Source of the DNA: Escherichia phage fp01
Sequence record: NC_048731.1
Length of the DNA stretch: 64,000 nucleotides
Direction: 5' to 3' (one strand)
The notes beneath the pieces were generated by a model that made no database searches, was not told the DNA's origin, and saw nothing but the letters and a program-made list of their open reading frames with translations. Shown here piece by piece: positions 7,412 to 43,900 of this stretch. Both the position numbers and the translations under genes were made by a program. How positions within the stretch are numbered: the first letter of the stretch is position 1; every line of letters starts with the position of its first letter.

Positions 7412-7440
7412 ATTATAACAAGAAATTAAGCATCAAGCAA
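7412..7440 (-). promoter_or_regulatory. T5-type early promoter (minus strand) firing into the ORF-free region 7080-7405
   Basis: plus attata 7412-7417, aagcaa 7435-7440, 17-bp spacer; flanking caatttatataaatatt block. Confidence 0.55.
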
Positions 7441-7458
7441 CTGCGTTTTTCTTGAAAT

Positions 7459-7537
7459 TGGTAGATCGCCTGGGACTCGAACCCAGAACCTTCCGATTAA
7501 AAGTCGGATGCTACTAAACCTATTGAGCTAGCGATCT
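7459..7537 (-). tRNA. tRNA-Lys (anticodon TTT)
   Basis: acceptor AGATCGC/GCGATCT, anticodon stem TCCGA/TCGGA with loop CTTTTAA, T-arm CTGGG-TTCGAGT-CCCAG, CCA encoded. Confidence 0.75.
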
Positions 7538-10350: not shown

Positions 10351-10482
10351 CATATTTAGAAGTATTCAAAAAATTCTAATTTAAACACTTTTAAATATGT
10401 TTCCAAATTAGATAACTATTATACCAAGTTTTAAGGCACTGAGCAAGTCAAATTTTAAAGAACTTGCTCAGTGCTGTATTAG

Positions 10483-40161: not shown

Positions 40162-40827
40162 GTGAAAAAGTTAACAGCAAAGCAAATAAATAAAGAATTA
40201 GAGCCGCGAGGTTTTAGTATAGTAAGTGAGTGGATTAATATAAGGACACCCGCCATATTTAAGTGCTCAAAAGGTCACCAATGGAGGGCATACCTAAACA
40301 ACATAAGAAAAGGTAGTGGTTGTCCACACTGTAGTAATAAAGCTAAGCTTACTATAGAGCAAATAAATCAACAATTAGCCAATAGAGGTATAAAACTTGT
40401 ATCCACGTATATCAATGCCCATAGTCAAGCAGTATTCGAGTGCGAAGAAGGACATAGGTGGACTAGTAGCGTGGATAAGATTAAAAATGCAGGAAGATCT
40501 TGTCCTATCTGTATAGCTACAAGCTATTTGTATATATTTTATAGCCAGCAGCTTGGAACAAAAATAGGAACATCTAAAAGTCCAGAGAGAAGACTTTTAG
40601 AGATCAAAAAAGATTCTAATCTAGAGGACTTGAGTGCATATGGAGTATACTCTTGTGAGGGGTCAGCATATAATCTAGAAAATAAAGCACATAGATTCTT
40701 TAGTGCTACACAGATATTTACAGAATCAATATTTGACGGTTCTACTGAGTTTTTCAATATTCAACCAGAGGAGGCAGAGGAATATCTCCTAAGTCAGGGA
40801 GCAATAAAATGTCAGGAGATAATGTAA
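40162..40827 (+). CDS. putative endonuclease with tandem zinc-ribbon repeats and GIY-YIG-like segment (homing-endonuclease-like)
   Basis: 221 aa; duplicated CSKGHQW...CPHC / CEEGHRW...CPIC modules, then YLYIFYSQQLGTKIGTSKSPERRLLEI; GTG start in ORF track. Confidence 0.45.
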   Translation: MKKLTAKQINKELEPRGFSIVSEWINIRTPAIFKCSKGHQWRAYLNNIRKGSGCPHCSNKAKLTIEQINQQLANRGIKLVSTYINAHSQAVFECEEGHRWTSSVDKIKNAGRSCPICIATSYLYIFYSQQLGTKIGTSKSPERRLLEIKKDSNLEDLSAYGVYSCEGSAYNLENKAHRFFSATQIFTESIFDGSTEFFNIQPEEAEEYLLSQGAIKCQEIM

Positions 40828-41120
40828 ATCAGGATTATGTTGGACATGTAGATGATCAGTCCATAGTTATCTGGGAAAGAGAAGATGGCCAACAGGTTAG
40901 GCTAACTGTATCTGAGTTTAGGGGGAATCTATACTTAGGAATTAGGTACTGGCTCCAAGATATAGAAGGTGAATGGTTTCCAACAAAAAGTGGATTCAGT
41001 ATGCCCTACACTCTAGAAACAACATCTCATTTATTTAAGGCATTTACTAAAATATTATCTAATAGTGAGGTTTTATTAGAAGTAGAAAAAGAAGCTAAAC
41101 GCCTGGCGGAAAAAGAATAA
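40809..41120 (+). CDS. PC4/Sub1-like ssDNA-binding domain protein
   Basis: 103 aa; QVRLTVSEFRGNLYLGIRYW...WFPTKSGFSMP resembles PC4-family domains. Confidence 0.45.
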   Translation: MSGDNVNQDYVGHVDDQSIVIWEREDGQQVRLTVSEFRGNLYLGIRYWLQDIEGEWFPTKSGFSMPYTLETTSHLFKAFTKILSNSEVLLEVEKEAKRLAEKE

Positions 41121-41126
41121 ATGTAT

Positions 41127-41155
41127 TTGCTTTCAACTCAGTTTTGTTATATAAT
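41127..41155 (+). promoter_or_regulatory. T5-type early promoter (plus strand) for ligase A
   Basis: TTGCTT 41127-41132, TATAAT 41150-41155; downstream ATTTATATAAATTGATGAGAG block. Confidence 0.55.
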
Positions 41156-41186
41156 ATTTATATAAATTGATGAGAGATACAAATAA

Positions 41187-42158
41187 ATGACTAATGTAAA
41201 AGACTTTATTAAACGTTGTCAAGAAGCATATTACCAGGGAATGTCTTTAATCTCTGACGAAGAATATGATCGTCTGATTAAAAGATTTCCGTTAGAAGAA
41301 GAGATCGGGCCTAAGGGTGATATTCCACATCTGTATCGTATGTATTCTTTACAGAAAGTTTATTATAATCGTGGAGATAAACCCCCATTTAACCCGTTAG
41401 GTCAGGTAGAAACTGATAAGTTAGATGGTTGTGCGATTTCTCTGTTATATATTAATGGCGAATTTGTTCAAGCACTAACTCGTGGCAATGGTATTCTAGG
41501 GAATGATGTCACAAGCAACGTAAGATTGCTGAACATCCCCAAAAAGATTTCCCAAAAAGTACCTACTCAAATCACTGGTGAAGTTCTAATTACAAAAGAA
41601 GTAGAAAATAAACGTAACTTTGCCTCTGGTGCTATTAACCTCAAAGATAGCGATGATTTCGTACAACGTATCGGAGAAGGTGGTTTAATCTTCGTTGCAT
41701 ATGGTATCCAGTGTTCTGCTGAATCTGTAGGTATTACAGAAACGTATTTAAAAGATATGCTTTGGCTAGAGAATGAGAACTTCTTAACAGTTGTTAATGT
41801 GCGTTCCTTCTTTAAATGGATTCCGACGGATGGTAAAGTTGTTCGTATTAATGACAACAACAAATTCTTCCGAGAAGGCTGGACTAATAAATTCCCTCGT
41901 GGAGCATTCGCTATTAAAGAGGATGAAGAAGGCGAGATTACAACTCTTACTAAAGTTGAATGGCAGGTAGGGGCTTCTGGTAAAGTAACTCCAGTTGGTT
42001 ATTTCGAACCGGTAATTATTGATGATGCTACAATTGTTAAGGCGACTCTTAATAACGTTGATTATATTAACTCTCTTGATCTAGAGATCGGTTGCCAGAT
42101 TCGAGTGATTCGTGCCGGTGGTGTAATCCCGTGCATAGTAGAGCGAGTATACGATTAA
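41187..42158 (+). CDS. NAD-dependent DNA ligase, adenylation/OB-fold subunit (ligase part A)
   Basis: 323 aa; adenylation motif KLDGCAI with TRGNG block. Confidence 0.8.
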   Translation: MTNVKDFIKRCQEAYYQGMSLISDEEYDRLIKRFPLEEEIGPKGDIPHLYRMYSLQKVYYNRGDKPPFNPLGQVETDKLDGCAISLLYINGEFVQALTRGNGILGNDVTSNVRLLNIPKKISQKVPTQITGEVLITKEVENKRNFASGAINLKDSDDFVQRIGEGGLIFVAYGIQCSAESVGITETYLKDMLWLENENFLTVVNVRSFFKWIPTDGKVVRINDNNKFFREGWTNKFPRGAFAIKEDEEGEITTLTKVEWQVGASGKVTPVGYFEPVIIDDATIVKATLNNVDYINSLDLEIGCQIRVIRAGGVIPCIVERVYD

Positions 42159-42301
42159 TACATAACCCTTTGCTACCCATCCACCATATCGGAATTATAA
42201 AGTGGTTATTGACATTTTCGCCGCTTAGGTATATACTATTATCATTCAGTTGAGGGATAGAAAGTTATGGCGAGGGTAAGCAAAGTTAGTTAAAATTGTA
42301 G

Positions 42302-42330
42302 TTGCTAAATGCTTAAATACTTGCTATAAT
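42302..42330 (+). promoter_or_regulatory. T5-type early promoter (plus strand) in the ligase A/B spacer
   Basis: TTGCTA 42302-42307, TATAAT 42325-42330; downstream ATTTATATAAATTGATAAGGAAG block. Confidence 0.55.
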
Positions 42331-42357
42331 ATTTATATAAATTGATAAGGAAGAAAT

Positions 42358-43140
42358 TTGATGAAAATCGAAATTCCAACACAATGTCCCTCTTGTGGTT
42401 CTAAGCTAGATCTTGTCAACGGACAATTATTCTGTCGGAATAAGTCCAACTGTCCAGCGCAATCAAGTAAGTTAATTGAGAACTTCTGTACAAAAATGAA
42501 GTTAAAGGGCTTTGGCCCAAAAACTATTGAGAAGCTGGAGCTGACGAAGATTTCAGAACTATTTTACCTAACCGAAGAAGATTTGGTTAGAGCCGTGGGT
42601 AGCAAGGTTGCCGCTAAGTTAATTAGCGAATTAAATACTAAAGTTCGCGGAGACATTGACTTTGGTTCAGTTCTCGGTTCTTTAGGAATCCCTCTAATAG
42701 GAGAGGTTGCAGCAAAGAAATTATCCCAAAATTGCACTAGCTTCCACGATGTGAAGGCTGACGGCAAGGCTGGAGAAAATTATAAAGCCTGGCTAAATTC
42801 CCCACAAGGCAGGGATGTTATCGAACTACCGTGGAAATTTTCAACCGGTATTAAGGGCACTAAAGCTAATATCATCATTACAGATGAATTAGTTGCCCAG
42901 CCAAATGGAATCGCGGTATGTATTACCGGATCTTTGCAAGATTTTGCAAATAGAACGGATGCAACAAACTATTTAGAAGGTCTAGGATATACGGTTAAGA
43001 AATCCGTTACCAAAGACGTCAAATACCTGATCTGTGAGGATGAATCAAAACGTTCTTCCTCATCTTATAAGAAAGCCGAAACGAATGGGATAGAAATCCT
43101 GTCGATTAAAGAACTATTGGAGAAAAATAATAATGTCTAA
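42358..43140 (+). CDS. NAD-dependent DNA ligase, Zn-finger/HhH/BRCT subunit (ligase part B)
   Basis: 260 aa; CPSCGSKLDLVNGQLFCRNKSNCPAQ zinc finger; C-terminal BRCT-like region. Confidence 0.8.
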   Translation: MMKIEIPTQCPSCGSKLDLVNGQLFCRNKSNCPAQSSKLIENFCTKMKLKGFGPKTIEKLELTKISELFYLTEEDLVRAVGSKVAAKLISELNTKVRGDIDFGSVLGSLGIPLIGEVAAKKLSQNCTSFHDVKADGKAGENYKAWLNSPQGRDVIELPWKFSTGIKGTKANIIITDELVAQPNGIAVCITGSLQDFANRTDATNYLEGLGYTVKKSVTKDVKYLICEDESKRSSSSYKKAETNGIEILSIKELLEKNNNV

Positions 43141-43900
43141 ACTGAACTGGAACGTAGAAGGTGTAACCGAGTCTCTGAAAGCAAAAGCCACTGCTCTGGG
43201 TGTTTCTGTAATCTCTCAAGAACAAGTAGCTGCTATCGCTGCTGAACTGGCTGCTGAAACTGGCAAAGATGTTACTGCCCGCTCTGTTGGCTCTAAACTG
43301 CGTAAAGAAGGTTTTGAAGTACAGAAAGCTAACGAAGTACAGAAATCCCCGTGGACTCCTGAGCAGGAAGCTGAACTGGTTGATTTCCTGAACGCTCATG
43401 CTGGTCAGTATACCTATGCTGAAATCGCTGCTGCTGTAGCTGGTGGCCAGTTCGGTGCTAAACAGGTACAGGGTAAGATTCTGAGCCTGGAAATGACCGC
43501 TTCTGTTAAGCCAACCGAAAAAGCTGCTGCTGTTCGTTCCTTCACTCCGGATGAAGAAACTGATTTTGTTAATCAGGTTGTTGCTGGTGCTACTATTGAA
43601 GCTATCGCTGCTCACTTCGGTCGTAATATCAAGCAGATCCGTGGTAAAGCTCTGAGCCTGCTTCGTGAAGGTCGTATCGCGGCTATGCCGGTACAGGAAA
43701 CTTCAAGTGCTAAAACTCGTGAAGATCTGTTAGAAGGTCTGGATCTGGTTAACATGACTGTTGCTGAGATCGCTGAGAAAACTGGTAAATCTGAGCGCGG
43801 TGTTAAATCTATGCTGTCTCGTCGTGGTCTGGTTGCTAAGGACTATGATGGTGCCGCTAAGCGTGCTAAACTGGATGCAAAAGCTGCGGCTGTTGAATAA
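43133..43900 (+). CDS. abundant-type repeat protein (four ~55-aa HTH-like repeats), E. coli-optimal codon usage
   Basis: 255 aa; repeated ...EIA...G......K.LSL... modules; strong CTG/GCT/CGT/GGT codon preference unlike neighbouring genes. Confidence 0.6.
   Translation: MSKLNWNVEGVTESLKAKATALGVSVISQEQVAAIAAELAAETGKDVTARSVGSKLRKEGFEVQKANEVQKSPWTPEQEAELVDFLNAHAGQYTYAEIAAAVAGGQFGAKQVQGKILSLEMTASVKPTEKAAAVRSFTPDEETDFVNQVVAGATIEAIAAHFGRNIKQIRGKALSLLREGRIAAMPVQETSSAKTREDLLEGLDLVNMTVAEIAEKTGKSERGVKSMLSRRGLVAKDYDGAAKRAKLDAKAAAVE

Follow-up and report, generated by a model that had tools for sequence, protein, structure and literature searches.

The locus at positions 41187-43140 of the window very probably encodes a T5-type heterodimeric NAD+-dependent DNA ligase that consists of two chains. 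The window is the whole stretch of DNA analysed, 64,000 nucleotides of Escherichia phage fp01 (NC_048731.1); with 95-98% DNA identity to many Tequintavirus isolates, it belongs to a T5-like phage. The suggestion of a two-subunit ligase, made in a first-pass annotation of the same DNA, is supported, since both halves are intact and conserved, the same split occurs in 118 loci, and the homologues from Providencia phage PR1 are a heterodimer according to the PDB title. The LigA family (EC 6.5.1.2) is characterised by a single polypeptide, whereas here two open reading frames (ORFs) lie 202 nt apart, and this two-ORF state is the defining feature of the split subtype. Alignment of ligA and ligB to E. 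coli LigA shows that no ligase module is missing and none is added. Such a split ligase, of the LigA/LigB type of Demerecviridae, is already known and is ordinary for T5-like phages. The features of the locus are as follows.

41127..41155, + strand: ligA promoter, TTGCTT-17-TATAAT, of the T5 early-promoter type, one of 19 such sites in the window
41187..42158, + strand: ligA, ligase subunit A, 323 aa, with a short domain Ia, an adenylation (NTase) domain and an OB fold (ORF, Pfam, match to 9HU3 chain A)
41418..41429, + strand: motif I KLDG, residues 78-81, with K78 as the predicted adenylated lysine (sequence reading)
42159..42360, no strand: intergenic spacer from the ligA stop to the ligB ATG, 202 nt (ORF boundaries)
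42209..42237, + strand: promoter P1, TTGACA-17-TATACT, equal to T5 P-K 28b (11/12 consensus match; inside the T5 annotation by coordinate transfer)
42252..42293, + strand: SD-like GAGGGA (42252-42257) and mini-ORF of 8 codons, ATG 42267 to TAA 42293, in the P1 leader (sequence reading)
42302..42330, + strand: promoter P2, TTGCTA-17-TATAAT, TG-extended, equal to T5 P-K 28a (motif match; inside the T5 annotation)
42325..42346, + strand: 22-nt box over the -10 hexamer and initial transcribed region, TATAATATTTATATAAATTGAT, common to the ligA promoter and P2
42347..42353, + strand: ligB Shine-Dalgarno (SD) sequence AAGGAAG, 7 nt 5' of ATG 42361 (sequence reading)
42361..43140, + strand: ligB, ligase subunit B, 259 aa, with a Cys4 zinc finger, HhH and BRCT (ORF, Pfam, match to 9HU3 chain B)
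42385..42453, + strand: Cys4 zinc finger of LigB, C9, C12, C25 and C31 (four cysteines invariant in 7 genera)
42907..43122, + strand: BRCT domain of LigB, PF00533, E 9e-8 (residues 184-255 of the TTG-started ORF)
43133..43900, + strand: D5 gene, a DNA-binding protein needed in T5 for replication and late transcription (ORF; T5.118 annotation)

According to the ORF list, both reading frames lie where they were first reported. The adenylation/OB part with its KLDG motif had been taken to end at 42158, and the ORF agrees with this, as do the Pfam matches to DNA_ligase_aden (PF01653, E 6.5e-24) and DNA_ligase_OB (PF03120, E 3.8e-22). K78 aligns to K115 of E. coli LigA and, like D80 and G81, does not vary among 30 homologues. 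E. coli LigA 284-390 is the counterpart of residues 214-320, residues 4-323 match PDB chain 9HU3_A (E 3.1e-104), and the AlphaFold model of LigA (pLDDT 86.6) has 9I5I_A and 9HU3_A as its best PDB matches. At the N-terminus, helices are predicted at residues 2-16 and 24-33, the segment ISDEEYDRL aligns weakly with IPDAEYDRL of E. coli in domain Ia, and Y15, Y27 and D28 are invariant in the 30 homologues. Domain Ia provides NAD+ specificity via conserved Tyr and Asp residues in the N-terminal helices, which are essential residues in E. coli.

The assignment of the zinc finger, HhH and BRCT modules to LigB is borne out by the invariant Cys4 set, the Pfam match of BRCT and the alignment to E. coli LigA, in which LigB residues 3-122 correspond to 402-529 and residues 169-253 to 585-666. 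C9, C12 and C25 align with cysteines of the E. coli zinc-finger segment, and the fourth cysteine, C31, falls just beyond a gap in the alignment; the Pfam matches of HhH are weak and below cut-off. Residues 1-255 match PDB chain 9HU3_B (E 3.5e-80), and every chain B residue shown in the alignment is the same as in Providencia phages PR1 and PSTCR5 (100% identity). The ligB gene does have its own SD sequence as first noted, and its start is almost certainly not TTG 42358 but ATG 42361, one codon on, because all annotated relatives and chain 9HU3_B begin with MKI. Therefore, the spacer is 202 nt long and not 199 bp, a length that is kept exactly in nearly all Tequintavirus and Epseptimavirus loci examined.

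The promoter first seen in the spacer at 42302-42330 (P2) is real; a second one upstream at 42209-42237 (P1), the better consensus match of the two, had been overlooked. By motif match, both have the elements of T5 early sigma70 promoters, namely the -35, the 17-nt gap, the -10 and an A/T-rich discriminator. TTGCT-N17-TATAAT occurs at 19 sites in the window against 0.2 expected, and P2 belongs to the phage's own promoter family. P1 was also considered as a repeated promoter type, which was rejected since it is unique within the window. The 22-nt box of P2 has an exact copy at 41150-41171 in the ligA promoter and 8 copies with three or fewer mismatches in the window (0.02 expected); it fits the conserved discriminator reported for T5 early promoters (PMC7472727). 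T5 RefSeq has a promoter at 65284-65358, the place equivalent to the ligA promoter. A literature text search with the promoter sequences gave no match. Judging from the T5 annotation and the motif matches, P1 and P2 may both fire in vivo in this isolate.

This layout is conserved. A sigma70-type promoter lies 5' of ligB in 30 of 32 distinct upstream regions, compared with 0.32 in shuffles. Klebsiella, Serratia, Providencia, Proteus and Vibrio phages have a counterpart of P1 at -151 to -155 relative to the ligB ATG; one of P2 is present at -53 to -70 in 29/32 distinct relatives, and a further relative has it at -36. Within the genus, the 152-nt stretch that runs from P1 to the ligB ATG is 99.3-100% identical, compared with 74-94% at ligA third codon positions. 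The SD-like element of the P1 leader is conserved between genera, and the mini-ORF ranges from 2 to at least 8 codons with no conserved peptide. In the window the P1 leader folds well (z -3.7); as aligned, this fold shows no conservation, and RNAalifold gave no consensus pairs for the P1-P2 segment of 7 genera. A putative conserved hairpin or inverted repeat lies over the -35 of P2.

Downstream, D5 overlaps the 3' end of ligB by 8 nt and is probably co-transcribed with it from P1/P2; its ORF has a sigma70 region 4-like Pfam match. Upstream, no terminator-like site was found 3' of ligA, so that transcripts begun at the ligA promoter are likely to run on into ligB. Therefore, ligA and ligB are not fully independent transcription units.

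Why the split is kept can be viewed in more than one way. It is possible, though rather unlikely, that it is kept for the sake of a promoter and transcription-unit boundary inside the ligase, by which the amounts and timing of LigA and LigB would be set separately and ligase could be throttled late. If this were true, such throttling could leave the site-specific nicks of T5-type virion DNA unsealed, surplus LigB might bind or mark nicks alone, and the hairpin or inverted repeat at P2 as well as the SD-like element and mini-ORF of the P1 leader would belong to the separate control of LigA and LigB. A further step, which appears improbable, is that LigB made in surplus from the strong tandem promoters also acts without LigA, the split having freed it; it could then serve as a nick- or DNA-binding protein or as a BRCT scaffold, in replication or nick protection. 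The near-universal promoter directly 5' of ligB in the clade and the position of ligB as first gene of the D5-helicase block are in keeping with such a role, as are the Vibrio phages, in which one to three unrelated genes lie between ligA and ligB and the tandem promoters remain with ligB. However, the adjacency of ligA and ligB in every locus is what co-function predicts, and the solved complex is a heterodimer.

The place of the break also agrees with two cooperating subunits. Comparison with single-chain LigA, which the first-pass annotation had proposed for locating the split, puts it in the linker from the OB fold to the zinc finger, at about 393/400 of E. coli LigA; the last aligned residue of LigA, 320, corresponds to E. 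coli 390, and the first of LigB, residue 3, to 402. In 118/118 related loci examined, down to 38% LigB identity, the ligase is split at this point. In a search of a database of 5.8 billion proteins, the best 120 LigA homologues are 310-337 aa long except for one record marked partial (240 aa), and no fused close relative was found among these 120 matches or the 118 loci; phage ligases of the single-chain kind turn up only where identity is 30% or below.

The same data bear on the possibility of a disrupted gene, in which the two ORFs would be decaying ligase halves left by an insertion or a nonsense mutation, with the phage relying on host LigA. The ORFs, which are in different frames, are indeed colinear with single-chain LigA, and in Salmonella phage SP3 a mobile GIY-YIG endonuclease ORF is located exactly in the ligA-ligB gap. 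The earlier statement that the spacer holds no endonuclease ORF is thus true of the window but does not extend to SP3. A homing endonuclease as general occupant of the gap was rejected, as SP3 and one further Salmonella phage were the only ones found to have it there; Pfam gave nothing informative for the gap ORFs in Vibrio and Proteus phages. Decay, which the first-pass annotation had kept as an alternative, is contradicted by the full length of both halves, by catalytic residues invariant in 30 homologues and zinc-binding residues invariant in 7, by the conserved split and uniform LigA length, and by the crystallisation of the homologous pair as a heterodimer on nicked DNA (PDB title), and it is very improbable.

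Least probable of all, and hardly conceivable, is that one protein is made after all, by RNA splicing, split-intein trans-splicing, or read-through or frameshift over the spacer: group I introns or inteins do sometimes interrupt phage genes, and 'fractured genes' that have split inteins and, between their two halves, an endonuclease gene have been reported (PMC2677866), but the interval from the end of LigA (E. coli 393) to the start of LigB (about 400) leaves no space for intein halves, two promoters fill the spacer, and the PDB entry has two separate chains. In line with the first report of no intron, scanning 40800-43400 against Rfam at E<=1 gave no intron or other RNA family in the spacer, the only hit being a chance miRNA match outside it. 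An intein was ruled out since the alignment to E. coli LigA shows no extra residues at the junction, and read-through or frameshift because the spacer has stop codons in each of its three frames. The sequence makes a spliced mRNA unlikely, given the lack of an intron family match, of intein residues and of an open frame across the spacer.

For the two-chain ligase, a probable mechanism can be described as follows. LigA, with domain Ia binding NMN, the NTase domain carrying K78, and the OB fold, would by itself form ligase-AMP from NAD+. The zinc finger, HhH and BRCT of LigB would complete the clamp around nicked DNA as in single-chain LigA, and the two subunits would associate non-covalently on the nick and seal it together. 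Binding and ligation by the proteins of this phage are predicted from their sequences, and heterodimer formation is suggested by the PDB titles and chain composition of a 52-54% identical homologue. Likely substrates would be Okazaki fragments and the single-strand interruptions of phage DNA. Each of the two genes is translated on its own, and their transcription is separate in part, with an early-type promoter in front of ligA and with ligB placed behind the tandem sigma70 promoters P-K 28b and P-K 28a; P1/P2 would probably also drive D5 and the downstream replication genes.

The value of the locus as a discovery is small, for the P28 promoters are classical and the heterodimer was solved in 2026. 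Its value is comparative: a very wide clade, in which LigB identity falls to 38%, keeps both the break point and the ligB promoter, and the two-chain state is therefore old and selected, not accidental. The split ligase is also a natural system in which to ask how the C-terminal clamp of an NAD ligase works in trans.

The closest known system is T5 itself (NC_005859), in which ligA (T5.116) and ligB (T5.117) have carried the annotation of subunits A and B from the 2005 genome paper onwards. Gene order and break point are the same, as is the 202-nt spacer with both P-K 28b and P-K 28a, and only isolate-level substitutions are seen here. T5 lacks the T5orf172-type ORF that the window has at 40162-40827, two genes 5' of ligA. 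An IMG/VR contig (L011) is likewise very close to the window, with a spacer 99.5% identical, LigA 99% and LigB 97%.

Providencia phage PR1 belongs to a different genus, Priunavirus, and its ligase (PDB 9HU3/9I5I, released 2026, titled 'PR1 phage heterodimeric DNA ligase in complex with 21-mer nicked DNA') has two chains with the same domain division and is bound to nicked DNA. Its LigA is 52-54% and its LigB 54% identical to those of the window, and PR1 chain A superposes on the AlphaFold model of the window LigA with TM 0.81-0.84. The PR1 spacer, at 192 nt, has the same tandem promoter layout. The deposited chain A, with 339 aa, is 16 residues longer than LigA of the window, and the annotated ligA ORF of PSTCR5 (1002 nt) is about 10 codons longer, whereas PR1 LigB has about 10 residues fewer in the linker before BRCT. 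Within the literature collection searched, no publication on the 9HU3/9I5I structure or on T5 ligase biochemistry was found.

The 'fractured genes' of PMC2677866 are also cut into two adjacent ORFs, and an endonuclease between the halves resembles the situation in SP3; they differ from the window, which has no intein sequences and no endonuclease gene and in which the halves stay separate. Single-chain LigA from E. coli (2OWO) and Thermus filiformis (1DGS) has the same six modules in the same order with the same motifs (KxDG, Cys4, HhH, BRCT), but in one polypeptide of 667-671 aa that is 25-28% identical to the phage enzyme, whose domain Ia/N-terminal segment is about 37 residues shorter (K78 versus K115). 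Haloferax volcanii LigN-deltaC, engineered by truncation of a single-chain enzyme, corresponds to LigA by itself (Ia, NTase and OB). Reconstitution of LigN from two pieces failed, since the C-terminal piece was not stably expressed (PMC1684257). LigN-deltaC, cut after the OB fold, showed normal self-adenylation but no DNA joining (PMC1684257), and therefore LigB appears to be needed for ligation by the T5-type enzyme.

[quoted passage not shown] The two genes, with their promoters and the ribosome-binding site of ligB, are as follows.

41127-41155, ligA promoter
41187-42158, ligA ORF, same strand as ligB, 323 aa
42209-42237, promoter P1, TTGACA-17-TATACT, near-consensus sigma70
42302-42330, promoter P2, TTGCTA-17-TATAAT
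42347-42353, ligB Shine-Dalgarno sequence, AAGGAAG
42358/42361-43140, ligB ORF, same strand as ligA, 260/259 aa

The first-pass annotation described two separate ligase genes, and the domain content of the ORFs agrees with it. In Pfam searches, LigA matches the NAD-ligase adenylation domain (E 6.5e-24) and OB fold (E 3.8e-22), with KLDG at residues 78-81, and LigB matches BRCT (E 9e-8) and, weakly, HhH, its N-terminal end being a CxxC...C...C zinc finger. Alignments of 30 LigA and 7 LigB homologues show no variation at the catalytic and metal-binding residues. Since T5, all annotated relatives, and the PDB chain 9HU3_B begin with MKI, translation of ligB starts at ATG 42361, one codon downstream of the TTG at 42358 proposed earlier, and therefore the spacer is 202 nt rather than 199 bp.

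The exact split point was sought by alignment with the single-chain E. coli LigA. LigA residues 214-320 correspond to E. coli residues 284-390, and LigB residues 3-122 to 402-529. Since LigA would end at about 393 and LigB start at about 400 in E. coli numbering, the break falls within the linker that joins the OB fold to the zinc finger. Across the break, residues are neither lost nor gained relative to E. coli LigA, which leaves no room for split-intein halves; all three frames of the spacer contain stop codons; and an Rfam scan found no intron or other RNA family in the spacer. Therefore, splicing, trans-splicing, read-through, and frameshifting appear unlikely, from the sequence, as ways to a single protein.

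The split is shared widely. With the concatenated LigA and LigB halves as the tblastn query, all Demerecviridae records listed have the ligase in two pieces, at identities as low as 47%, and phage ligases of the single-chain kind come up only at or below 30% identity. The best 120 LigA homologues in a database of 5.8 billion proteins are 310-337 aa long, except for one partial record of 240 aa. An IMG/VR profile search with LigB added 80 further loci, whose LigB is as little as 38% identical, and in all 80 ligA lies directly upstream of ligB with the same break point. The length of the gap between the genes varies by group: 202 nt for T5-like genera, 185-199 nt for Klebsiella, Serratia, Providencia, and related phages, and 55-118 nt for distant relatives from the environment. 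Vibrio, Proteus, and some other phages have gaps of 344-1375 nt that house one to three small genes. The earlier alternatives were a two-subunit ligase or a disrupted gene; the former is supported and the latter is rejected. With minor corrections, the original observation is confirmed.

The promoter reported at 42302-42330 (P2) is real and is one member of a family of promoters in this phage, since TTGCT-N17-TATAAT occurs at 19 sites in the window against 0.2 expected. Starting at the -10, it shares 22 nt exactly with the ligA promoter, and this stretch has eight near-copies in the window (0.02 expected). P1, which the first-pass annotation missed, lies 93 nt upstream and is the better consensus match; it is the single example in the window, and in the other genera, too, its counterpart stays at -151 to -155 relative to the ligB ATG. 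Since no terminator-like site was found after ligA, transcription of ligB probably has two sources, read-through from the ligA side and starts at P1 and P2, which also head the helicase gene and D5, the latter overlapping the ligB stop by 8 nt.

Among 32 distinct ligB-upstream regions, less than 80% identical to each other, TTGNNN-N16-18-[TG]ATAAT is present in 30, compared with 0.32 in shuffles; it lies 53-70 nt 5' of the start codon in 29 and at -36 in one (locus L090). Therefore, a promoter before ligB dates as far back as the split itself. Tandem P1 and P2, at -152 and -58, are common to enterobacterial, Proteus, Providencia, and Vibrio phage genera, and this layout persists even with extra genes inserted after ligA. 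The 152 nt running from P1 up to the ATG show 99.3-100% identity within Tequintavirus and Epseptimavirus, and ligA third codon positions only 74-94%.

The P1 leader (42252-42293) contains an SD-like GAGGGA, conserved between genera, followed by a mini-ORF of eight codons (42267-42293, MARVSKVS), which elsewhere has 2 to 8 codons or more, or differs altogether, and has no conserved peptide; the two may be left over from a promoter-RBS cassette, or may form a translated minigene. In most genera a hairpin or inverted repeat covers the -35 and spacer of P2 (window about 42276-42320; also related loci L035-L038, L004, L066, and L073), its arms differing in sequence among genera. Mean folding z was -2.9 for ligB P2 regions (n=11) versus -0.4 for the other TTGCT promoters of the window (n=18), and RNAalifold on MAFFT alignments found no common structure for the region. 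This element could act as an operator or, in the P1 transcript, form an RNA hairpin. Elsewhere in the window (10400-10470, minus strand), the promoter at 10446(-) lies inside an inverted repeat with perfect 12-bp arms, CACTGAGCAAGT-N13-ACTTGCTCAGTG, and the -35 hexamer falls in the right arm (z -6.3); this palindrome is of the same kind as that upstream of ligB in Proteus phage PM135. Upstream of the promoter at 7440(-), the sequence at about 7441-7485 (minus strand) ends in GGTTCGAGTCCC...ACCA, a putative tRNA-gene 3' end by its appearance (T5 tRNA region).

Insertions at and near the junction in related phage loci are as follows.

L027 / L063 4950-5606, GIY-YIG homing-endonuclease-like ORF of Salmonella phage SP3, 213 aa, Pfam E 1e-5
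L004 2469-3427, L005 2469-3687, L006 2457-2917, L038 2649-2816, small genes between ligA and ligB in Vibrio and Proteus phages
L001 1687-1959, L002 1687-2160, extra ORFs 5' of ligA, equivalent to window 41121-41186

SP3 (NC_048001) carries a 592-nt insertion directly 3' of the ligA stop; its GIY-YIG ORF overlaps the ligA 3' end, and the last ~70 ligA codons are unusually diverged. Only one other phage in the collection has the same insertion, making two distinct phages in all. The gap can thus take in homing-endonuclease genes, which does not make such an element the cause of the split. Of the one to three genes interposed in Vibrio and Proteus phages, one is annotated as DprA-like and has only a weak Pfam match; the tandem promoters still lie directly 5' of ligB despite these genes. 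In some close relatives, small ORFs (one or two, of 273 and 201 nt) are added between the PC4-like gene and ligA, and the ligA-upstream region is therefore another insertion hot spot. A probable mobile gene, shared with SelmaRatti, ZJUN2, and ESCO30, occupies window 40162-40827; its 221-aa ORF combines two DUF4379/CapR-type zinc-finger repeats with a T5orf172/MUG113 (GIY-YIG-like) domain. T5 lacks it at this place, where T5.114 adjoins T5.115.

Single-chain LigA self-adenylates with NAD+ through its Ia, NTase, and OB part and requires its Zn, HhH, and BRCT part for the DNA-dependent steps. On this division, the phage most likely makes a catalytic protein and a separate clamp protein, which would assemble on the nick. 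A LigN truncation equivalent to LigA alone showed normal adenylation without ligation (PMC1684257). It seems improbable to us that the split serves to let the two halves be regulated separately, perhaps tied to the nicks in T5-type genomes.

The split ligase is already known from annotation, literature, and a solved structure. In T5 (NC_005859), ligA (T5.116) and ligB (T5.117) are annotated, and other papers list them as subunits A and B (PMC3632103, PMC4319617). The T5 record also places promoters P-K 28b and P-K 28a within the spacer, which by coordinate transfer fall at window 42189-42263 (P1) and 42282-42356 (P2), respectively. PDB entries 9HU3 and 9I5I contain a 339-aa chain matching LigA (E 3e-104) and a 248-aa 'DNA ligase subunit B' matching LigB (E 3.5e-80), the aligned residues of chain B matching Providencia phages PR1 and PSTCR5 at 100% identity. 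Foldseek, queried with an AlphaFold model of the window's LigA (pLDDT 86.6), matched the same entries with TM-scores of 0.81-0.84. One entry, released 2026-01-14, is titled 'PR1 phage heterodimeric DNA ligase in complex with 21-mer nicked DNA containing phage nick sequence', and a second has the same title with random sequence instead (2026-02-18). The PR1 pair, a heterodimer on nicked DNA, is 52-54% identical to the window's ligase, and by analogy LigA and LigB of fp01 would assemble on the nick as in the PR1 structure.
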